39,129 nt of DNA from a phage. The notes beneath the pieces were generated by a model. The model saw nothing but the letters and a program-made list of their open reading frames with translations, was not told where the DNA came from and did no database searches. The position numbers and the translations under genes are program-made. How positions within the stretch are numbered: the stretch's first letter is position 1; each line of letters opens with the position of its first letter. Of this stretch, positions 1 through 38,710 are shown piece after piece. The stretch lies in the sequence record PX309103.1. One strand, given 5' to 3'.

Positions 1-180
1 TCTCACAGTTCAAGAACCTCAAGTCTCCCCATAGGCCCTCTTTAAGTCCAGACCAAAGGCCCTACCCCCAGTCTATCATAAGGTTGGACCGATGGTCAAG
101 ACTTCAGGTCGACGATAGGTCTAGGCTATGGCTGGAGGTTAGACGATAGGTAGGGGCTATAGGTCTGTCTCTGTGTCTCT
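1..180. repeat. Left direct terminal repeat (180 bp), identical to 38950-39129
   Basis: Read directly: bases 1-180 are identical to the last 180 bases of the window; T7-like genomes carry such terminal redundancy. Confidence 0.95.
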
Positions 181-216
181 ATCTGTATAGTGTTATAGTA
201 TAACATTACGTCCACA

Positions 217-306
217 CCTACAGTCTCACTACCTACAGTCATTGACTCCTGCTGTACCTACAGCCTCAACCATAAGACACCAACGCCTACAGTCAGAGAC
301 CTACAG
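217..306. repeat. Array of 5 CCTACAG heptamers just inside the left terminal repeat
   Basis: CCTACAG at 217, 232, 257, 286 and 300; resembles the short repeat arrays flanking T7 terminal repeats. Confidence 0.7.
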
Positions 307-556
307 TTAATAGACACACAGCTATAGACTTAAGGTCAAAGACATGTTAGTCAAAGACTATCCTCTTACACCATGAGGCCGACGATAGCTTAATCGATAT
401 TATTTAAATAACATATTGACTATAGGTCCAGACTATGGCCTAATAGCTTCCGTCAACACGACACGGCAACAACCGGATAGTGAAGACGCCGGGTCATCCC
501 GGTTAAGTAGACAGCCTGATAAGTCATACGAACAACAGGCAGATGACAGAAAGTAG

Positions 557-586
557 TTGACAAGATGTAACGATAAGATGTAAGCT
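557..586 (+). promoter_or_regulatory. Candidate host sigma70 early promoter (TTGACA-N18-TAAGCT)
   Basis: TTGACA at 557-562 and TAAGCT at 581-586; position matches T7 A-promoters. A second weaker candidate has TTGACT at 416-421 after an AT-rich stretch. Pattern match only. Confidence 0.3.
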
Positions 587-775
587 GTACCACATCGAAA
601 CAACGGTGATGACCAACACTGAAATGGTCTACCTGAAGTCCTCTGACTGAAGGGAATGCTCTTTAACAATCTGGATAAACTCTTAATGTGCGCCGATAGC
701 GACTAACTACAGGGTCTTTGAGTCTACATCTGAAGGCCCTGACTGATAGTCACTAACAACTGAGAGGATATAACT

Positions 776-1285
776 ATGGAACGTAACGCTAACGCATACT
801 ATGAGCTGCTGGCTGCAACCGTTGAGCTGTTCAATGAGCGTATTCAGTACGACGAAATAGCTGAAGGCGATGACTACAGCGATGCGCTGCATGAGGTCGT
901 AGACGGTCAGGTCCCGCACTATTACCACGAGATTTTCACGGTGATGGCTGCTGATGGCATAGACCACGAGTTTGAGGACTCTGGGCTGATGCCTGAGACC
1001 AAGAACGTAACGCGTATACTACAAGCTCGCATCTATGAGGCACTTTATAACGATGTGTCTAATAGCTCTGAGGTGGTCTGGTTTGAGGCTGAAGAGAGCG
1101 ACGAAGAGGATGAATATTGGGTAGTTGACACTAGAACAGGCGAGATAATTGAGCAAGCTGTATCACTTTACGAGGCTACTGCATGTGCAAAAGAACTCTA
1201 TGAGGAAGGTTTTCACATGCAGGTCGAAGACATCAACGATAACGTAGTGTTCGACCCTGCGGCTGCTGAGGAGGATTGCGAGTGA
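776..1285 (+). CDS. ocr: Ocr-like anti-restriction DNA-mimic protein (T7 gp0.3 family) with C-terminal extension
   Basis: 169 aa, very acidic; the segment VPHYYHEIFTVMAADGIDHEFEDSGLMPETKNVTRILQARIYEAL matches recalled T7 Ocr; GAGGA RBS; first gene after the early promoter region. Confidence 0.85.
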   Translation: MERNANAYYELLAATVELFNERIQYDEIAEGDDYSDALHEVVDGQVPHYYHEIFTVMAADGIDHEFEDSGLMPETKNVTRILQARIYEALYNDVSNSSEVVWFEAEESDEEDEYWVVDTRTGEIIEQAVSLYEATACAKELYEEGFHMQVEDINDNVVFDPAAAEEDCE

Positions 1286-1442
1286 TAGTAACTTATGGTC
1301 TCTGCCAGCACCACGTCACCATAAGCCGGGCGTTGGTCAAAACCGGGCAGTTAAACCACGAGGAGGCCATGCGTCTCTTGAAAGTGGTCTACAGGAGACG
1401 CAAGCGCATGCACGATAGTTTACACACTGAGGACAAGTAAAC

Positions 1443-1574
1443 ATGTATCAGATAACTTATAGCAGTGAACAGGCATTCTACGAGGGGTGCTACGAGCTGA
1501 TGAAGCGTGGGGCTTGCTGGTGGGCTGACTGTAAGCAAGATGACCACTGTATCGGTGGAAGTGTAACCGTGTAA
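1443..1574 (+). CDS. Small Cys-rich early protein (43 aa), hypothetical
   Basis: ORF MYQITYSSEQAFYEGCYELMKRGACWWADCKQDDHCIGGSVTV with GAGGA upstream; below the ORF-track size cutoff. Confidence 0.4.
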   Translation: MYQITYSSEQAFYEGCYELMKRGACWWADCKQDDHCIGGSVTV

Positions 1575-1655
1575 GGCCTAGCTGAGTGATAGACGAGAGG
1601 TCATCGACTGATAGGTGGCCTCAAAGATTACCACTTAAATTGATAGGAGTTAACT

Positions 1656-1823
1656 ATGAAATTTACAGGCATAGCACTTTACGTAACGATTATTATGGCG
1701 TGGCTGACTGCGGTATTCACTGATGGGAACGCATTACGACTAGGCTGGATGGCAGTGGATATTATCTTCTCTCCGGTAGGGGTCGTGCGGGGCATCTTGA
1801 TGTGGTTTGGATTGGCGGGATAA
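1656..1823 (+). CDS. Small hydrophobic early protein (55 aa), hypothetical
   Basis: ORF MKFTGIALYVTIIMAWLTAVFTDGNALRLGWMAVDIIFSPVGVVRGILMWFGLAG with TAGGAG RBS; predicted transmembrane character. Confidence 0.45.
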   Translation: MKFTGIALYVTIIMAWLTAVFTDGNALRLGWMAVDIIFSPVGVVRGILMWFGLAG

Positions 1824-1912
1824 ACTATGAGTGTGGGATATTTGGTATGCCTGTCTCCGGTCATCTTTCTGATAGCTTGGGGGATATACGATTGTATTAA
1901 ACGGAAATCACT

Positions 1913-2110
1913 ATGAGTATCGCACTATTGATAGCCATAGGCTATGGACTTATCGCCTACGTGCTGGTGAGAGACATCAACAAAGCGCGTAAAGTCTACA
2001 AATTAAACTATGTACGTCTGGGTCGCTGGACTGTACGTCAACCTAACGGACGATTCCTGCGCAATTTAGCGAACGTCTGGGATATAGCAACTCTTGGGAG
2101 CAAACTGTAA
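1913..2110 (+). CDS. Hypothetical early membrane protein (65 aa)
   Basis: ORF with hydrophobic N-terminus; + strand, packed between early genes. Confidence 0.5.
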   Translation: MSIALLIAIGYGLIAYVLVRDINKARKVYKLNYVRLGRWTVRQPNGRFLRNLANVWDIATLGSKL

Positions 2111-2436
2111 TGAACAAGTCATACGGGATTAATCTGGTACACTCTATGGACGCAGAAATGAACATGTTAAGCCTACTGGCTACCGGGTATCGTCACGGAA
2201 CGTCAAGTCACACCGCACGTCAACAGCAGGAGCGGGACCGTGTACTACAGGCGCGACTCCGGGCAGAGGGCCATAAGTCCGAACTGATGTGTCTGGCGTA
2301 TGGCGGACGACCGATCACTGACGATGGTAAACTTTTAGTCTCAGGCTGGAAGGCGATAGACCAACGGTCAACCATCAAGCACACGACTCACGGTGACTTC
2401 AGCCATCTCCACGCTAACCCACTGATATGCAAGTAA
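2110..2436 (+). CDS. Hypothetical early protein (108 aa) at the T7 0.6/0.7 position
   Basis: ORF start overlaps the preceding stop (TAATG); I recognise no known domain. Confidence 0.5.
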   Translation: MNKSYGINLVHSMDAEMNMLSLLATGYRHGTSSHTARQQQERDRVLQARLRAEGHKSELMCLAYGGRPITDDGKLLVSGWKAIDQRSTIKHTTHGDFSHLHANPLICK

Positions 2437-2441
2437 TTCTG

Positions 2442-2464
2442 ACTTAACTATCACTATAGGACTC
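2442..2464 (+). promoter_or_regulatory. Phage RNAP promoter upstream of gene 1 (TTAACTATCACTATAGGACT)
   Basis: Matches the in-genome consensus TAAACTATCACTATAGG found 11 times. Confidence 0.7.
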
Positions 2465-2533
2465 AAGGTCTAAGACTCCAAGTGAAAGACCAAAGAGACT
2501 CTAAGTGAAAGACTAATAACAAGGACTTTAAGT

Positions 2534-5215
2534 ATGAGCGTCATCTCTATTGACAAACACGACTTCTCTGATGTGTCAAACGCCATTGAGCCGTTTAACC
2601 TGCTGGCTGACCACTACGGGCAAGACCTTGCAGTCAAACAGCTTCAGCTTGAGCATGAGGCATACACTGAAGGCGAGCGACGTTTCATCAAAAACCTTGA
2701 GCGACAGACTGAGCGCGGGGAACTGGCAGACAATCAGGTCGCCAAGCCTTTGATGCAGACTCTGGTCCCTAAGATTGCGCAAGCAGTCAAGGAGTGGCAC
2801 GAAGGTCCAGACGGGAAGCTGTCAACCTCTCGTCCTAGCGTAGCGTTCACCATGTTGAGCACTGAAGAGAAGGCCGTCAAGGACCGCTCTATGCGCATCT
2901 CCTGTGAGTCCGCTGCGGTTATCATACTGAAGGTAATACTCTCCAAGCTGGTCAAGCCCGAAGGGATACCGATTACACCTATGGCCTCCGCGATAGGTCG
3001 CACACTTGAGGACGAAATCCGCTTCGGTCGCATCCGTGACAAAGAGAAAGAGCACTTCAAGAAGGCGATAGCTGATAACCTGAATAAGCGTGCCGGGGCA
3101 TCCTACAAGAAAGCCTACATGCAAGCGGTAGAGGCATCCATGCTGGAGCAAGGCCAACTGGAAGATGCGTGGGGGACTTGGAGTCCTACAGAGGCTGTCC
3201 ACGTTGGCATTAAGATGCTCGAGATTGTCATCCAGTCAACACAACTTGTCGAGCTTAAGCGTTACGGTGCTGGCAATGCAGCGACTGACGTAGAGATGGT
3301 CCACCTGTCAGACTTCTGGGTCAAGAAGATGGCACAACGAGGATTCAGCCTTGCGGGTATCGCTCCTGTCTACCAGCCTTGCGTCGTTCCACCAAAGCCG
3401 TGGACTGGTGTCGTAGGCGGTGGGTATTGGGCCAAAGGTCGAAGACCATTGCCACTGATTCGCTTAGGGTCTAAGTCTGCGGTAGCACGTTACGAAGACG
3501 TGTACATGCCTGAAGTCTATGACGCTGTGAATATCATCCAGAATACACCTTGGAAAGTGAACAAGAAGGTATTGGACGTGGTGAACATGGTCGAGAAGCT
3601 GAACAACACGCCTATTGATGACATCCCTCAGATGGAGCCGCTGAAGCCTGAGGACTATGCTGGTGAGACCGAAGAAGAACTCAAGGCATGGAAGAAGGCT
3701 GCTGCTGGTATCTACCGCCGAGAGAAGGCCCGGCAGTCACGTAGATTGTCACTGAGCTTTATCGTTAACCAAGCGAACAAGTTCTCTCAGTTCAAGGCCA
3801 TCTGGTTTCCGTACAACATGGACTGGCGCGGTCGCGTCTACGCTGTGCCGATGTTCAACCCTCAAGGCAACGACATGCAGAAGGGTCTCCTGACTCTGGC
3901 AGTCGGCAAGCCTATTGGTGCTGACGGTTTCAAATGGCTGAAGGTCCACGGTGCAAACTGCGCGGGTGTCGATAAAGTCACCTTCGAGGAGCGCATCAAG
4001 TGGGTGGAAGACAACCACGAAAACATCATGGCTGCTGCTAAGGCACCGATGGATAGTATTGAGTGGTGGGGCAAGTTAGACTCTCCGTTCTGTTTCCTCG
4101 CGTTCTGCTTCGAGTATGCTGGCGTAATGCACCACGGCCTGTCTTACTCCTGCTCGCTGCCGATAGCGTTCGATGGGTCCTGCTCTGGTATTCAGCACTT
4201 CAGTGCGATGCTTCGTGACCACATCGGTGGACATGCAGTAAACCTGACGCCATCCGGTATGGTACAAGACATCTACCGCATTGTGTCTGACCGCATTGAG
4301 GAGGAGCTTAAAGTCCTGCTGATTAACGGTACTGACAACGAGATGGTCACTCACGAGGACAAGAAAACTGGTGAGATTACCGAACGTATCAAGCTGGGGA
4401 CACGAGAGCTGGCCCGTCAGTGGCTGACCTACGGGATGTCACGTAAGGTCACTAAGCGTTCAGTCATGACTCTGGCATACGGGTCGAAAGAGTACGGCTT
4501 CGCAGACCAAGTTTACGAGGACATCGTGATGCCAGCGATTGACTCAGGGTCTGGCGCTATGTTCACCGAGCCGAGCCAAGCGTCTCGCTTCATGGCTAAG
4601 ATGATTTGGGAAGCTGTGAGTGTGACTGTAGTTGCTGCGGTTGACGCGATGAAGTGGCTTCAAGGTGCTGCCAAGCTGCTGGCTGCTGAGGTGAAGGACA
4701 AGAAGACTGGAGAAATCCTGAAGCCTTGCCTTCCGGTACACTGGGTAACACCTGATGGTTTCCCGGTCTGGCAGGAATACCGCAAGAAGGATACCACTCG
4801 TCTGAACCTGATGTTCTTAGGGTCATTCAACCTTCAGCCTACCGTCAACAGAGGTACGAAGAAAGAGCTGGACAAACACAAGCAGGAGTCAGGAATTAGC
4901 CCGAACTTCGTCCACTCACAAGATGGTAGCCACCTCCGCAAGACTGTAGTCCACACGCACCGCAAGTATGGCGTGATGTCATTCGCAGTGATTCACGATA
5001 GCTTCGGGACCATCCCGGCTGACGCTGAGTATCTGTTCCGTGGCGTCCGTGAGACGATGGTCGAGACCTACCGCGACAACGATGTGCTGCTTGACTTCTA
5101 CGAGCAGTTTGAATACCAGCTTCATGAGAGCCAGCGCGACAAGTTACCTGAGCTACCGAAGAAAGGTAAACTGAATATCGAGGACATCTTGTCTTCAGAC
5201 TTTGCATTCGCTTAA
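2534..5215 (+). CDS. Single-subunit DNA-dependent RNA polymerase (T7 gp1 family)
   Basis: 893 aa; motifs DGSCSGIQHFSAM, HDSFGT and C-terminal ...DFAFA match T7 RNAP. Confidence 0.97.
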   Translation: MSVISIDKHDFSDVSNAIEPFNLLADHYGQDLAVKQLQLEHEAYTEGERRFIKNLERQTERGELADNQVAKPLMQTLVPKIAQAVKEWHEGPDGKLSTSRPSVAFTMLSTEEKAVKDRSMRISCESAAVIILKVILSKLVKPEGIPITPMASAIGRTLEDEIRFGRIRDKEKEHFKKAIADNLNKRAGASYKKAYMQAVEASMLEQGQLEDAWGTWSPTEAVHVGIKMLEIVIQSTQLVELKRYGAGNAATDVEMVHLSDFWVKKMAQRGFSLAGIAPVYQPCVVPPKPWTGVVGGGYWAKGRRPLPLIRLGSKSAVARYEDVYMPEVYDAVNIIQNTPWKVNKKVLDVVNMVEKLNNTPIDDIPQMEPLKPEDYAGETEEELKAWKKAAAGIYRREKARQSRRLSLSFIVNQANKFSQFKAIWFPYNMDWRGRVYAVPMFNPQGNDMQKGLLTLAVGKPIGADGFKWLKVHGANCAGVDKVTFEERIKWVEDNHENIMAAAKAPMDSIEWWGKLDSPFCFLAFCFEYAGVMHHGLSYSCSLPIAFDGSCSGIQHFSAMLRDHIGGHAVNLTPSGMVQDIYRIVSDRIEEELKVLLINGTDNEMVTHEDKKTGEITERIKLGTRELARQWLTYGMSRKVTKRSVMTLAYGSKEYGFADQVYEDIVMPAIDSGSGAMFTEPSQASRFMAKMIWEAVSVTVVAAVDAMKWLQGAAKLLAAEVKDKKTGEILKPCLPVHWVTPDGFPVWQEYRKKDTTRLNLMFLGSFNLQPTVNRGTKKELDKHKQESGISPNFVHSQDGSHLRKTVVHTHRKYGVMSFAVIHDSFGTIPADAEYLFRGVRETMVETYRDNDVLLDFYEQFEYQLHESQRDKLPELPKKGKLNIEDILSSDFAFA

Positions 5216-5227
5216 CAGGAGAGAGTT

Positions 5228-5443
5228 ATGAAATTTGCACACAAGCAGGCTGGCGTTAAGGGCGGGACTCAAATCGTGACCGTAACAGAACACAACGGCA
5301 AGGGTCTGGTGAAGACCACGGTCATTCCTACCGAGATGTCAAAGCAGCTTAACGTCCCATTCAAGACCCTAGTCTGTCTTGTGGAATCTAGCCACGAGAA
5401 ATACCTGAAAGACGCAGTGTCCAAGCTGGAGCAGACCAAATGA
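5228..5443 (+). CDS. Hypothetical protein (71 aa) between RNAP gene and the phi1.1-type promoter
   Basis: ORF with AGGAGA RBS; T7 has no gene at this position as far as I recall. Confidence 0.5.
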   Translation: MKFAHKQAGVKGGTQIVTVTEHNGKGLVKTTVIPTEMSKQLNVPFKTLVCLVESSHEKYLKDAVSKLEQTK

Positions 5444-5516
5444 CAGACTTACAGTTACTGGCCTTGTGGTTGGGAGCACTAGCAGTATTCACTTTAATCC
5501 AACGCAGAAGAGGTTA

Positions 5517-5541
5517 ACCCTAAACTATCACTATAGGATTA
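5517..5541 (+). promoter_or_regulatory. Phage RNAP promoter (phi1.1-like)
   Basis: TAAACTATCACTATAGGATT. Confidence 0.8.
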
Positions 5542-5546
5542 GACTC

Positions 5547-5573
5547 AAGGTCATGACTCAAAGTCGTGGCCTT
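5547..5573 (+). promoter_or_regulatory. Conserved hairpin, RNase III-site-like (R1.1 position)
   Basis: AAGGUCAUGAC / GUCGUGGCCUU 11-bp stem with G-U pairs and UCAAA loop; one of 3 copies of the same element. Confidence 0.6.
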
Positions 5574-5611
5574 CATGATTAACCCTAACTCATTCAATCA
5601 GGAGCTACACC

Positions 5612-5791
5612 ATGTATCAGAACACTATCAACTTCGAGCGCATCCGTGAACGTCAGCAGACTGAAGATTATATTCCGAAGGGACGCAAGCTGAACAAGAC
5701 CAAGCGTGGCGGTGGTGTAAAGGGTGCTTTCCGTAACGCTGAAGGAAAAGACTCTATGGTCAACCAAGAGAAGTATTTCGTAGGAGCATAA
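5612..5791 (+). CDS. gp1.1-like small basic protein (59 aa)
   Basis: Contains KGRKLNKTKR, matching recalled T7 gp1.1; AGGAG RBS. Confidence 0.7.
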   Translation: MYQNTINFERIRERQQTEDYIPKGRKLNKTKRGGGVKGAFRNAEGKDSMVNQEKYFVGA

Positions 5792-5795
5792 CGCT

Positions 5796-6059
5796 ATGGG
5801 CCGACTTTATAGTGGCAACCTAAACGCTTTCAAAGCAGCGTGTAACAGGCTCTATCAGTTAGACTTCGCTGTCATATCTCAGGAGTTTCAAGACCTTACG
5901 TCACGCCAAGAGTGTATGAGACTCAGGGTAGAGGACCGGGCGGGTAACATATTCGCTCTTGAGTCCTTCGCACACTACGATGAAGACGTACTGTACAACA
6001 CTGCAACAGAATTCCTCAATGGTCTCGCTGACCAACTCGACACATGGAGCAAATCATAA
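5796..6059 (+). CDS. gp1.2-like protein (inhibitor of host dGTP triphosphohydrolase family)
   Basis: N-terminus MGRLYSGNLNAFKAA... matches recalled T7 gp1.2. Confidence 0.8.
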   Translation: MGRLYSGNLNAFKAACNRLYQLDFAVISQEFQDLTSRQECMRLRVEDRAGNIFALESFAHYDEDVLYNTATEFLNGLADQLDTWSKS

Positions 6060-7162
6060 TGACAACGACTATCAAAACTAACCCGCACCGCGCTGTAGAT
6101 TACTCTGAGTCTGGCGTTAAGAAAGCACTGGAAGCAGCCGGGTCTCTGGAAGCTGAAGTGAAGTACGATGGTGTGCGCCTGAATCTCCCGGTCTTCCCTA
6201 CTGGTGAGACTCAATGGTTGAGCCGTGAGTCTAAACCTCTCCCAGCGCTTCAGCATCTGAAGTCAGAACATGGTAGTCCTACCGAATTAACAAACTGTGG
6301 AGACTGGCGCTGGTTCCTGAAGCAAGCAGGACATGAGGTCTCTGGCCTAATGATTGATGGCGAGGTGATGGTCAAAGGCGTGGACTTCAACACGTCTTCC
6401 GGTCTTATCCGCACCATGTGGTCTGACCGCAAGAACTACAAGTGGAACATGAACCCTAAGGCAGATATGGAGACCAAGAAGTCTAACAAGGTTCCCTTCC
6501 AGATTAGCCCTGAGTCCCTACGAGTGGTCGTCTACGGGGTCATCGACCTTAACGTCATCAACGACCCAAAAGCCGAAGGTCCTATTCATAGCGTCACACG
6601 CCTGAAGGCCGAAGCTATCGTCCCTCTCCTCCAGAAATACTTCCCGGAAATCGACTGGGTTCTGTCTGAGTCACACACGGTCTATGACCTTGAGTCGCTC
6701 AGCTCCCTGTACGAAGAGAAGCGTCTGGAAGGACACGAGGGTCTGGTAGTCAAGGACCCGCTTGGTAAATACAAGCGTGGCAAGAAGTCTGGCATGTGGA
6801 AAATGAAGCCTGAGGAGACCATAGACGGGACAGTGTGTGGCCTCGTGTGGGGGACTCAGGGTAAGGCGAACGAAGGTAAGGTCATCGGCTTCGAGGTGCT
6901 ACTTGAGGACGGCATGGTGGTTAACACCTGTGGCCTGACTGAAGAACAGAAGGACGAATTCACAGCTAAAGTCGCTGAATCTAGTGGCTATACCTTGGCT
7001 GGTGGCCCTGTGGTTATTCAGGATGGGACCGAGAAGACCAACCCATACGAAGGCTGGCAGTGTGAAGTCCTCTTCATGGAGCGGTTCCCAGATGGCTCAC
7101 TTCGTCACCCTAGCTTCAAGTGCTGGCGTGGAACTGAAGACAATCCGACCATTAAGAGCTAA
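6059..7162 (+). CDS. ATP-dependent DNA ligase (T7 gp1.3 family)
   Basis: Adenylation motif KYDGVR (EVKYDGVRLNL); start placed at ATG 6059 (GGAG 9 nt upstream, TAATG overlap with previous stop) rather than the ORF-track start 6044. Confidence 0.9.
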   Translation: MTTTIKTNPHRAVDYSESGVKKALEAAGSLEAEVKYDGVRLNLPVFPTGETQWLSRESKPLPALQHLKSEHGSPTELTNCGDWRWFLKQAGHEVSGLMIDGEVMVKGVDFNTSSGLIRTMWSDRKNYKWNMNPKADMETKKSNKVPFQISPESLRVVVYGVIDLNVINDPKAEGPIHSVTRLKAEAIVPLLQKYFPEIDWVLSESHTVYDLESLSSLYEEKRLEGHEGLVVKDPLGKYKRGKKSGMWKMKPEETIDGTVCGLVWGTQGKANEGKVIGFEVLLEDGMVVNTCGLTEEQKDEFTAKVAESSGYTLAGGPVVIQDGTEKTNPYEGWQCEVLFMERFPDGSLRHPSFKCWRGTEDNPTIKS

Positions 7163-8033: not shown

Positions 8034-8192
8034 ATGACTGACGTAGAGAAGAAGTACATCGTGGAGCTTGAGGGTCACATTCAGTCCTTCGAGGTTCCGG
8101 TGTACGCAAAGTCTCTTGAAGAGGCTACCCTGAAGTCCCAAGAGTATGAGGACGCTGGGTTTGTGGTCGGACGGATTCGTCCTGAGACCTAA
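8034..8192 (+). CDS. Gp2-like inhibitor of host RNA polymerase (52 aa)
   Basis: [17 protein letters not shown]...[10 protein letters not shown] matches recalled T7 Gp2. Confidence 0.8.
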
Positions 8193-14897: not shown

Positions 14898-15181
14898 TGG
14901 CTATTACTAAACGTATTCGTGTAAGTTTCGACCTGAAGATGGTTGTCAGCTCAAAGGAAGAAGATACCATGTGTCGCCAACTGGCTGAGAGGACTAAAGC
15001 CTACGCTGAGGGCGAGAAGCTGGATGGACTTCAGTTGGCTCTGGTCAAAGCAGCAATCGAATCAGGCCCTGAGTCTGCCATTGAAATTGTCGCCAAGAAG
15101 ATCATCAAGGAGGAGCTGGTAGAGGCCTTTGGTGAGGGTCAGTTAGGTGTGTCCAACCTGCGATTCGAGGTCAAGCAATGA
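14897..15181 (+). CDS. gp5.5-like protein (possible H-NS-binding family)
   Basis: 94 aa; N-terminus MAITKRIRVSFDL resembles recalled T7 gp5.5; assignment tentative. Confidence 0.5.
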   Translation: MAITKRIRVSFDLKMVVSSKEEDTMCRQLAERTKAYAEGEKLDGLQLALVKAAIESGPESAIEIVAKKIIKEELVEAFGEGQLGVSNLRFEVKQ

Positions 15182-15387
15182 GTGAATACTTACGGGTCCT
15201 AGCGGCCCTTAAGTCCTGCCCGAAGACCTTCCAGTCCAACTATGTGCGCAATAACGCTGCACTTGTGGCTGAGGCTGCGAGTCGTGGACATCTAAGCTGC
15301 CTGTCTATGGATGGGCGTAACAACGGTGCGTGGGAGATTACCGCTGCTGGCACCAAGTTCCTGAACCAACATGGAGGCTGTTTATGA
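15178..15387 (+). CDS. gp5.7-like protein
   Basis: LKSCPKTFQSNYVRNNAALVAEAASRGHLSC matches recalled T7 gp5.7. Confidence 0.8.
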   Translation: MSEYLRVLAALKSCPKTFQSNYVRNNAALVAEAASRGHLSCLSMDGRNNGAWEITAAGTKFLNQHGGCL

Positions 15388-38551: not shown

Positions 38552-38710
38552 ATGGCAAAGACCAAAGCTGTACTTAAAGCTCTGGCGACCAATCGAGCTA
38601 CATACAGGTTTCTTGCTTCTGTTCTACTTGCTGCTGGCGTTACTGCTGGAAGTCAGTGGGTCGGGTGGGTCGAGACTCTCGTATGTTCTCTGGTGTCTCA
38701 GTGTAATTAA
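38552..38710 (+). CDS. gp19.5-position small membrane protein (52 aa)
   Basis: ORF MAKTKAVLKALATNRATYRFLASVLLAAGV... with AGGAGG RBS. Confidence 0.55.
   Translation: MAKTKAVLKALATNRATYRFLASVLLAAGVTAGSQWVGWVETLVCSLVSQCN

Follow-up and report, generated by a model that had tools for sequence, protein, structure and literature searches.

The analysed window, the entire 39,129-nt stretch of sequence record PX309103.1, is a complete genome of a Kayfunavirus (K1F-like phage). It shares 89-94% nucleotide identity with CLB_P1, PDP351P3, EPr2, Vec13, pO2 and other Kayfunavirus genomes (269 records match) and, along its full length, follows the order of the T7 genes from 0.3 to 19.5. The early end of the genome contains the following features.

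416-452, plus strand: putative host (sigma-70 type) early promoter, T7 A1 equivalent (34/37 identity to the 'host RNAP promoter' annotated at 469-505 in EcoDS1)
697-755, plus strand: predicted RNase III-type hairpin (R0.3-like) in the ocr leader (fold of 690-778)
776-1285, plus strand: ocr (gene 0.3), encoding a 169-aa anti-restriction protein that mimics DNA and is extended at its C-terminus (PF08684, phrog_2568)
1282-1440, plus strand: 52-aa gene, gp0.35 of K1F/EcoDS1, assigned to the Gp0.4 family (PHROG, hhalign, HMM, PF26807 on homologs)
1443-1574, plus strand: 43-aa acidic peptide with four cysteines (conservation, codon bias)
1572-1652, plus strand: predicted RNase III-type hairpin spacer (R0.5-like), boundary of an exchangeable cassette (fold, conservation)
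1656-1823, plus strand: 55-aa protein with two hydrophobic helices (phrog_7319)
1827-1916, plus strand: 29-aa peptide, a single hydrophobic helix followed by a KRKS tail (conservation, codon bias)
1913-2110, plus strand: 65-aa gp0.6 of the T3 type, predicted to have a membrane anchor at its N-terminus and a basic tail that contains a TVRxPNGRF motif (phrog_2385, BLASTP)
2110-2436, plus strand: 108-aa K1F-type gp0.38, a basic soluble 12-kDa protein (phrog_7066); its start overlaps the preceding stop (TAATG)
2442-2464, plus strand: putative first promoter for the phage RNA polymerase, just 5' of gene 1 (23/23 identity to the EcoDS1 'phi' promoter)
2534-5215, plus strand: gene 1, T7-type single-subunit RNA polymerase, 893 aa (63% identity to T7 gp1)

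Two homologs of T7 proteins flank the small genes. Ocr matches Pfam family PF08684 (E 1.7e-31, residues 7-99) and phrog_2568 (E 3.8e-56) and is 51% identical to T7 Ocr. The identity of the gene 1 product to T7 gp1 extends over 898 aligned columns, and its first 200 residues are 98-100% identical to those of Kayfunavirus relatives. The gene order 0.3 (ocr), 0.35, small ORFs, 0.6, 0.38, phage promoter, gene 1, without gene 0.7, is that of the K1F and EcoDS1 annotations and is shared with SH3-SH5, the genomes of which were published in 2016 and also have a kinase-less early order (PMC4925675). The early block is normal for K1F-like phages, and its layout is already known. What varies relative to K1F, EcoDS1 and SH3-SH5 is the combination of optional small genes: those for the 43-aa, 55-aa and 29-aa products occur together in the window but in no single relative examined. 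The gene content of the early region varies greatly among relatives.

The interval has the same place and direction as the 0.4-0.7 region of T7, with promoters and RNase III sites arranged in the same way, and small hydrophobic early peptides are encoded in both (gp0.5 in T7). The T7 interval from ocr to the RNAP gene encodes 0.4, 0.5, 0.6 and the 359-aa 0.7, and the earlier description of this interval, made from sequence alone, agrees with T7 gene content. Homologs of T7 gp0.5, gp0.6 and gp0.7 were not found in the window in tblastn and hhalign comparisons. The interval 1282-2436 is best explained, with a probability of about 0.85, as the accessory segment of the early (class I) transcription unit in a complete Kayfunavirus genome.

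The fold of positions 690-778, which includes the hairpin in the ocr leader, has an energy of -22.9 kcal/mol (z -2.26), and the T3 annotation places R0.3 at the position equivalent to 697-755. The hairpin spacer at 1572-1652 (-23.4 kcal/mol, z -2.48) shows 95-96% conservation with EcoDS1 and IME177, and its ST29 counterpart lies directly 3' of a short kinase gene. The 17-bp core of the phage promoter is represented by 10 copies in the window, against 0.1 expected, with none upstream of 2442-2464. The location of this promoter directly before gene 1 differs from T7, where a promoter for the phage's own polymerase is absent from that position. A possible second TTGACA-type element, at ~556-590, was read from the sequence. 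An Rfam scan of positions 1-6500 yielded no match, and a generic scan for sigma-70 promoters and terminators yielded no excess over shuffled sequences and missed the promoters identified by homology.

We infer promoter activity and RNase III cleavage from similarity to the T7, T3 and EcoDS1 annotations. The small ORFs are genuine early genes, located between the host-type promoter on their 5' side and the first phage promoter on their 3' side. This layout suggests that the host RNA polymerase would transcribe the early block from strong promoters at the left end soon after infection, within minutes. The early transcript would probably be cleaved at the RNase III-type hairpins, and the tightly packed, partly overlapping genes would be translated ahead of the takeover by the phage polymerase.

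Five small ORFs had been counted between ocr and the RNAP gene; there are actually six. The missed one, the 52-aa ORF at 1282-1440, was overlooked because it has a GTG start at 1282. This codon overlaps the ocr stop as GTGA, and a GAGGAGG Shine-Dalgarno sequence is located 7 nt upstream. The region had been taken to begin at position 1286, which falls inside the 52-aa gene. The ORFs of 43, 55, 65 and 108 aa were correctly delineated, whereas the one given as 27 aa encodes 29 aa (1827-1916). In profile searches, which the sequence-only reading had proposed, the 52-, 55-, 65- and 108-aa products fall into existing PHROG families, and the 43- and 29-aa products into none. NCBIfam and PADLOC scans of the six small proteins returned nothing meaningful.

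The acidic 43-aa peptide (pI 4.6) has no match in PHROG, Pfam or NCBIfam. Its residues 1-29 are 72-86% identical in 18 related loci, with 24/17/84 substitutions at the three codon positions, and its C-terminus departs from the consensus of a 41-aa family. The 55-aa protein (phrog_7319, E 8.9e-25; codon bias 48/13/71) is found in only some relatives and contains hydrophobic segments at residues 1-23 and 32-53; its identification with T7 gp0.5 was rejected (hhalign probability 0.3). The 29-aa peptide, with a hydrophobic segment at residues 1-24, is conserved in at least 17 related loci (codon bias 35/44/104) and matches no PHROG or Pfam family. The 55- and 29-aa products are both predicted small membrane peptides.

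The 65-aa protein, which has a hydrophobic segment at residues 1-22 and a pI of 11.0, matches phrog_2385 (E 1.8e-31) and is 43% identical to the T3 gene 0.6 product (BLASTP, E 1e-10). The T3 protein is likewise 65 aa long, starts with a hydrophobic helix and shares the TVRxxNGRF motif. The gene is already named 0.6 in the K1F and EcoDS1 annotations, and 98 homologous ORFs were detected across Studiervirinae loci. In T3, Berlinvirus and KP32-like phages, 0.6 is located upstream of the kinase gene, whereas in the window and in K1F-like phages, it directly precedes gp0.38 and gene 1. Homology to T3 gene 0.6 places this ORF in a known family, although T3 0.6 is a named rather than a characterised protein. 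The basic tail of gp0.6 would be placed in the cytoplasm, with the N-terminal anchor in the membrane. T7 gp0.6 is a reported MreB inhibitor. A relationship of the 65-aa protein to T7 gp0.6 (gp0.6A) was considered and rejected, with an hhalign probability of 0.3 and only a short TVxxPxG resemblance; other families scored 0.3 or less.

The 108-aa gp0.38 (phrog_7066, E 3.2e-46; codon bias 108/60/408) contains a conserved C-terminal core of ~85 aa with 25 invariant alignment columns, and all of its 144 homologs come from phage-sized contigs. When 1.84 billion proteins were searched exhaustively with HMMER for matches to the gp0.38 profile, 13 cluster representatives were retrieved, all from its own family, and no distant relatives. 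The AF2 model is poor (pLDDT 58.8, pTM 0.39), and a Foldseek search of BFVD with this model retrieved only the same family, including EcoDS1 Gp0.38; a profile search of the PDB produced noise (E 1.1 or worse). Judging from these searches, gp0.38 is a narrow family without detectable relatives or a fold match. The comparison with T3 gp0.65 (probability 2.8, P 0.016) is confined to a short 'AYGG/AYGA' motif, and a relationship is unsupported.

For the 52-aa gp0.35, the searches led to a T7 protein. It belongs to phrog_5058 (E 3.5e-23) and cross-matches phrog_7202, the family of T7 Gp0.4, at 7e-3; conversely, T7 Gp0.4 matches phrog_5058 at 9e-5. The hhalign comparison of the gp0.35 family with T7 Gp0.4 gave a probability of 81% (P 1.2e-5), against at most 1.8% for the 29 other pairs tested. 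Reciprocal HMM matches between Gp0.4 and gp0.35 among ~3,200 ORFs reach 5.8e-6 one way and 1.9e-3 the other way, the gp0.35 of the window itself scoring only E 0.026 against the T7 Gp0.4 profile. The Pfam family PF26807 (Phage_T7_GP04) is recorded on all 21 of 21 homologs that are 67-84% identical to the gp0.35 of the window, not on its exact sequence. In the AF2 model (pLDDT 88.4), gp0.35 is a two-helix hairpin (helices 9-21 and 26-50), and T7 Gp0.4 has been predicted as two antiparallel helices (PMC13423816). The T7 protein is 51 aa long, is similarly coupled to the ocr stop codon and shares 35% identity with gp0.35 over 40 columns. Plain BLAST misses this relationship, in our analysis as well as in a previous one (PMC9372555), and BLASTP of gp0.35 against '0.4' of CR8 gave no alignment; the link is seen only at the level of profiles and structure. 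At that level, gp0.35 is a remote homolog of T7 Gp0.4, the FtsZ inhibitor. The set of supposedly novel ORFs had been drawn up without this gene, the one with homology to a characterised T7 early protein.

The absence of a gp0.7-type kinase between ocr and the RNAP gene, noted previously, is confirmed and extends to all 39,129 bases. The best tblastn match of T7 gp0.7 to the whole window has an E-value of 5.5, with none at E<=1e-3 and no kinase remnant; none of the small ORFs falls into a kinase family of Pfam, NCBIfam or PHROGs, where the gp0.7 kinase is represented by phrog_2828, phrog_15752 and phrog_18305; and in hhalign comparisons of their families with the T7 gp0.7 kinase, the probability is at most 1.8%. 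The absence is not peculiar to this genome: most of the genus lacks the kinase. A short kinase is present in 44 phage records and gp0.38 in 213, such that ~20% of the relatives carry the kinase and ~80% of the gp0.38-bearing records lack it. In the kinase-bearing relatives (Pisces, ST29, Dev2 and CR8), the protein is ~244 aa long and consists of the gp0.7 kinase domain only; these phages belong to the same genus and have the same early block, with the same gp0.6 and gp0.38 pair following. The short kinase, absent from the window, elsewhere accompanies a SAMase or replaces ocr and gp0.35; in ST29, it occupies the slot of ocr, gp0.35 and the 43-aa gene, with the flanks unchanged. A comparison of Ser/Thr/Tyr depletion in orthologs from kinase-bearing and kinase-less relatives revealed no consistent difference. 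Homologs of gp2 and gp5.7 are present elsewhere in the genome and could still serve the shut-off of host transcription without gp0.7.

Alternative explanations were considered for the nature of the small ORFs, for the identity of the 52-aa protein and for the missing kinase. The possibility that these frames are open by chance alone, in a non-coding leader and spacer between ocr and gene 1, is suggested by their very short length (29-108 aa), by the lack of PHROG or Pfam matches for the 43- and 29-aa ORFs, and by the omission of several of them by gene callers in related records, such as IME177 and CHX131. It appears exceedingly improbable, being refuted by the codon-position test as far as sequence can show. 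Among the 6-25 related loci compared for each ORF, substitutions are enriched at codon position 3 in all six frames, with 0 in-frame stops gained, whereas a shift to the +1 frame reverses the pattern, with stops gained in 4 of the 6. Furthermore, the genes are closely packed, their start and stop codons overlapping or adjoining one another; most are preceded by Shine-Dalgarno sequences, and four belong to PHROG families at E < 1e-22. Judging from the substitution pattern, all six small ORFs are genuine genes. The 52-aa protein has also been labelled differently: its homolog in CHX131 is annotated as 'NinH protein', and its basic character (pI 10.0) would suit a NinH/Fis-like DNA-binding protein that is not an FtsZ inhibitor. 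This assignment is very unlikely given that neither the protein nor its homologs match Pfam NinH even at E up to 10, that the AF2 model consists of two helices and no helix-turn-helix, and that all independent profile evidence favours Gp0.4.

A recent deletion in this isolate, analogous to early-region deletions in laboratory T7, would account for the missing kinase and accords with the highly variable content of this region and with the presence of the kinase in some relatives. However, the same arrangement, junctions and conserved hairpin spacer are found in K1F, EcoDS1, IME177 and many others; together with the prevalence of kinase-less gp0.38-bearing records and the lack of a detectable remnant in tblastn, this makes such an event extremely unlikely. 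Another explanation is that the gp0.6/gp0.38 pair adjoining gene 1 replaces the C-terminal shut-off domain, or another function, of gp0.7. Directly before gene 1, gp0.38 occupies the place of T7 gene 0.7, and the kinases of gp0.38-bearing phages are of the ~244-aa, kinase-only type. Moreover, among the loci collected, gp0.38 is found in 0 of 81 with the shut-off domain and in 38 of 40 without it, although genus and the way in which the loci were gathered confound this mutual exclusion. There is no sequence relationship (hhalign probability to the shut-off domain 0.2-0.3 for gp0.38 and 0.2 for gp0.6), and the gp0.38 model is too poor for structural comparison; the interpretation of gp0.38 as a detached shut-off domain (residues 243-359 of gp0.7) was rejected at the sequence level. 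We regard a replacement as unlikely, and a new host shut-off module formed by the pair in place of the gp0.7 domain is a more remote possibility. The preferred reading is that of a genus-typical accessory early block that lacks gene 0.7.

Within this well-sampled genus, an early region that lacks the kinase and carries these small genes is standard, and the observation as originally stated matters little. A recent view treats the T7 kinase as an anti-defence weapon, retained or discarded by phages depending on the host. The locus, in which Ocr plus Gp0.4, the SAMase and the short kinase appear to alternate as cassettes flanked by the same RNA-processing hairpins, fits this view.

The sequence-only reading proposed the ORFs as candidate novel host-interaction proteins. 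The label is fair for genuine early genes in a region of variable content, and we retain 'candidate host-interaction proteins' for five of the six genes, all but gp0.35. The sequences, though, are not novel: homologs of the 65-, 108- and overlooked 52-aa proteins are present in ~160-220 GenBank phage genomes each, and curated annotations already denote the 65- and 108-aa products gp0.6 and gp0.38. The 43-, 55- and 29-aa products, gp0.6 and gp0.38 appear to be conserved non-structural early proteins, the likeliest role of which would be binding of targets in the host envelope or cytoplasm, in host takeover or anti-defence. Because gp0.38 and T3-type gp0.6 are each found in ~210-220 sequenced phages, many of them isolated as therapy candidates, a screen for host interactions could reasonably include both.

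For gp0.35, a more specific function can be proposed. The toxicity of T7 Gp0.4 requires V15, V22, W28, M32, L35 and Y39, and the W28L substitution abolishes its activity (PMC13423816). At five of these six residues (V15, V22, M32, L35 and Y39), gp0.35 is identical to T7 Gp0.4, and W28 is replaced by His26; identities are enriched on the FtsZ face (Fisher p 0.014, for six residues only). In contrast, all four residues of T7 Gp0.4 that are sensed by CapRelEbc (A12, T14, L16 and S19) are different in gp0.35. Binding of FtsZ, with the assembly of the Z-ring prevented, would be the most likely function of gp0.35, and we regard it as reasonably probable. More tentatively, gp0.35 might be a K1F-like FtsZ inhibitor in which the FtsZ-binding face is kept and the face sensed by CapRel(Ebc) is wholly replaced, such that division would be blocked without triggering immunity. 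K1F infection produces multi-ring filaments, and K1F was said to 'lack 0.4', with the inhibitor called 'unknown' (PMC9372555). On the profile evidence and a newer Pfam model, which place it in the Gp0.4 family, gp0.35 is the best candidate for this division inhibitor of K1F, which gives the question left by that study a named candidate.

The window is a complete T7-like genome of 39,129 bases, in which homologues of T7 proteins detected by tblastn are collinear from gene 0.3 (824-1072) to gene 19.5 (38570-38698). Many genomes of the genus Kayfunavirus (K1F-like, Studiervirinae), among them CLB_P1, PDP351P3, EPr2, Vec13 and pO2, are 89-94% nucleotide-identical to its early region. Between ocr and gene 1, where T7 carries 0.4, 0.5, 0.6 and the 359-aa kinase 0.7, six small ORFs were compared with 6-25 homologous loci each, and substitutions were counted by codon position.

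Features of the early region (small genes and gene 1 from the ORF list), with substitutions at codon positions 1/2/3
776-1285, ocr (Pfam ocr, E 1.7e-31; phrog_2568, E 3.8e-56)
1276/1282-1440, 52-aa gene (gp0.35), likely start GTG at 1282; 113/94/220
1443-1574, 43-aa gene; 24/17/84
1656-1823, 55-aa gene (phrog_7319); 48/13/71
1827-1916, 29-aa gene; 35/44/104
1913-2110, 65-aa gene (gp0.6; phrog_2385); 103/40/220
2110-2436, 108-aa gene (gp0.38; phrog_7066, E 3.2e-46); 108/60/408
2534-5215, gene 1, RNA polymerase

Substitutions peak at the third position in all six genes; owing to the common descent of the relatives, the counts do not represent independent events, but the pattern agrees throughout. 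No in-frame stop was gained in any of the six across these loci. When the same DNA was read one base out of frame as a control, the peak moved to 'position 2' and stops were gained in four of the six. By these comparative measures, all six small ORFs are genuine genes. The sequence-only reading had listed ORFs of 43, 55, 27, 65 and 108 aa as candidate novel host-interaction genes lying where a gp0.7-type kinase is missing; its 43-, 55-, 65- and 108-aa ORFs are present, but the 27-aa one is 29 aa long and the 52-aa gene was overlooked. The interpretation in that reading holds in part: the genes are real and mostly uncharacterised, but neither they nor the kinase absence is new: both are already documented and ordinary.

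The kinase is indeed absent between ocr and gene 1. T7 gp0.7 searched against the whole window gave a best tblastn E of 5.5, with nothing at 1e-3, and none of the small proteins has a kinase-family match in Pfam, PHROGs or NCBIfam. This is not unusual for the group: K1F and EcoDS1 share the kinase-less order (0.3, 0.35, ORF, 0.6, 0.38, phi promoter, gene 1), which has also been published for Citrobacter phages SH3-SH5 (PMC4925675). By tblastn, the window retains homologues of gp2 (8046-8183) and gp5.7 (15178-15384), both inhibitors of the host RNAP. No homologues were detected in the window (tblastn, E<=1e-3) of T7 gp1.4, 1.5, 2.8, 3.8, 4.3, 4.5, 4.7, 5.3, 5.5 (H-NS inhibitor), 5.9 (RecBCD inhibitor), 6.3, 7 and 7.7.

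Positions 416-452 are identical at 34 of 37 bases to the annotated host-RNAP promoter of EcoDS1. The window contains 10 copies of the 17-bp phage-promoter core, against a chance expectation of 0.1; no copy lies upstream of 2445, so the six small genes can presumably be transcribed by the host polymerase only, as class I genes. Two hairpins, at 697-755 (z -2.3) and 1572-1652 (z -2.5), fold more stably than shuffled controls; RNase III sites R0.3 and R0.5 are annotated at the equivalent places in T3, and by analogy we infer that the hairpins are putative RNase III-type processing sites. Directly before gene 1, 2442-2464 matches the annotated phage promoter of EcoDS1 at 23 of 23 bases; a promoter read by the phage polymerase and placed upstream of the polymerase gene itself would give positive feedback, and T7, unlike the window, lacks one there.

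Presence of the kinase varies in the group. Kayfunaviruses Pisces and ST29 and Caroctavirus CR8 encode a gp0.7 homologue that is about 244 aa long and consists of the kinase part only; after it come, in order, a small membrane ORF, the 65- and 108-aa genes and gene 1. In Salmonella phage ST29 (locus L028, 1591-2602, compared with window 551-1630), this 243-aa kinase occupies the exact slot of ocr, gp0.35 and the 43-aa gene, and both versions are flanked by the same leader (window 551-792) and hairpin spacer (window 1583-1630). The short kinase is present in 6 of the 21 IMG/VR contigs bearing the 108-aa gene, all six of which lack ocr and the 52-aa gene; among GenBank phage records, 213 carry the gp0.38 core and 44 the short kinase. 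The short kinase and the ocr-52-aa-43-aa block look like alternative cassettes, and the comparison of ST29 with the window suggests that anti-defence cassettes are swapped at RNA-processing sites.

One gene, gp0.35, proved homologous to a characterised T7 early protein, and several independent sequence and modelling results point to its link with T7 Gp0.4. Its GTG at 1282 overlaps the ocr stop as GTGA, with GAGGAGG 7 nt upstream, and the product is K1F/EcoDS1 gp0.35 (phrog_5058, E 3.5e-23). T7 Gp0.4 itself matches phrog_5058 (E 9e-5), and the window protein matches phrog_7202, the family of T7 Gp0.4 (E 7e-3). Profile alignment with hhalign gave a probability of 81% (P 1.2e-5, 40 columns); none of the other 29 profile pairs exceeded 1.8%. 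Against about 3,200 ORFs, a T7 Gp0.4 HMM retrieved K1F-type members at 5.8e-6 to 1e-4, EcoDS1 gp0.35 at 5.3e-5 and the window's own gp0.35 at only 0.026; in reverse, the gp0.35 HMM retrieved T7-type Gp0.4 at ~2e-3 and KP32-type ORFs at 1e-6. Precomputed Pfam assignments place PF26807 (Phage_T7_GP04) on 21 of 21 gp0.35 homologues, these being the homologues' sequences and not the window's own.

The AF2 model of gp0.35 (pLDDT 88.4) consists of two helices (9-21 and 26-50); for T7 Gp0.4, too, the prediction is a pair of antiparallel helices (PMC13423816). Foldseek against BFVD returned its own family first, then small T7-like phage proteins including CR8 '0.4' (probability 0.90). The toxicity of T7 Gp0.4 is abolished by each of V15A, V22A, W28A, M32A, L35A and Y39A, whereas A12, T14, L16, S19 and R23 matter solely for its recognition by the defence protein CapRel(Ebc) (PMC13423816). 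In the window's gp0.35, V15, V22, M32, L35 and Y39 are identical and W28 is replaced by His; A12, T14, L16 and S19 are all changed and R23 is Lys. Identities are enriched on the FtsZ face (Fisher p 0.014), a statistic based on just six residues. Multi-ring filaments form on infection with K1F, which was reported to lack 'the 0.4 genes' by BLAST, with its division inhibitor 'currently unknown' (PMC9372555). Given the Gp0.4-family evidence and filaments with no assigned inhibitor, gp0.35 is the obvious candidate for the K1F division inhibitor, and we put the probability that it binds FtsZ at about 0.6. The sole added value of the finding is a specific, cheap test of that inhibitor's identity.

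In locus L045, from a phage closely related to T7 (their gp0.7 proteins are 89% identical), a K1F-type ORF resembling gp0.35 (1549-1797) replaces the T7-type Gp0.4, so the two sub-families appear to exchange between genera. Homologues of gp0.35 are labelled 'Phage protein kinase' in LT594300.1 (LM33_P1) and 'NinH protein' in PV611674.1 (CHX131), and ocr is 'protein kinase' in one Vec13 record (MH400309.1); these are apparent misannotations, none backed by our searches.

The 65-aa protein (pI 11.0, one hydrophobic segment) is a phrog_2385 member called 0.6 in K1F and EcoDS1, and shares 43% identity with the product of T3 gene 0.6 (E 1e-10). The comparison loci hold 98 homologous ORFs, with an N-terminal hydrophobic helix and a TVRxPNGRF motif; in Berlinvirus and KP32-like Klebsiella phages the homologue lies upstream of the kinase. 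A relationship to T7 gp0.6A was rejected (hhalign probability 0.3). The 29-aa product is a single hydrophobic helix with a KRKS tail, and in relative L007 (2600-2743) it is naturally fused in frame to the C-terminal tail of gp0.6 (the 65-aa protein), probably through a deletion that joined the two genes. The 55-aa product, whose gene only some relatives have, contains two hydrophobic helices. The 43-aa product is an acidic protein containing four cysteines. Conservation covers its first 29 residues, and past about residue 31 it departs from the 41-aa family consensus (ACWWADCKQDDHCIGGSVTV versus ACYVANHHSLTITLTGGY), the divergent C-terminus adding two of the cysteines.

A word-indexed search with gp0.38 returned 144 homologues, all on ~40-kb phage contigs or fragments, and exhaustive HMMER only 13 cluster representatives among 1.84 billion proteins. 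In its conserved core (residues 25-108), 25 columns are invariant, and a T-x-x-G-D-F-x-H-L motif is among them. AF2 modelled the protein poorly (pLDDT 58.8), and searches of PDB and BFVD gave no match outside its own family. By hhalign, gp0.38 showed no similarity to the shut-off domain of gp0.7 (residues 243-359); the two never occur together in the comparison loci, a pattern confounded by genus and locus collection. In L122, a phage less closely related, gene 1 is preceded by the same pair (65 and 98 aa); L122 also has a Gp0.4-family gene and no kinase. In the gp0.38 alignment (A1), the core is preceded in some homologues (130-139 aa) by ~31 inserted residues (columns 24-54, RTFTDKNGVEWKYVGTDSRGRNYWEKTG); others (83-86 aa) begin right at it.

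Only the N-terminal 112 residues of T7 gp17 match the window (tblastn), as expected for a capsule-specific tailspike. Ocr is 169 aa long, against 117 aa in T7, and its Pfam domain spans residues 7-99 only, leaving a C-terminal extension of ~70 residues; relatives have a short Ocr of 103-110 aa or a long one of 167-176 aa.
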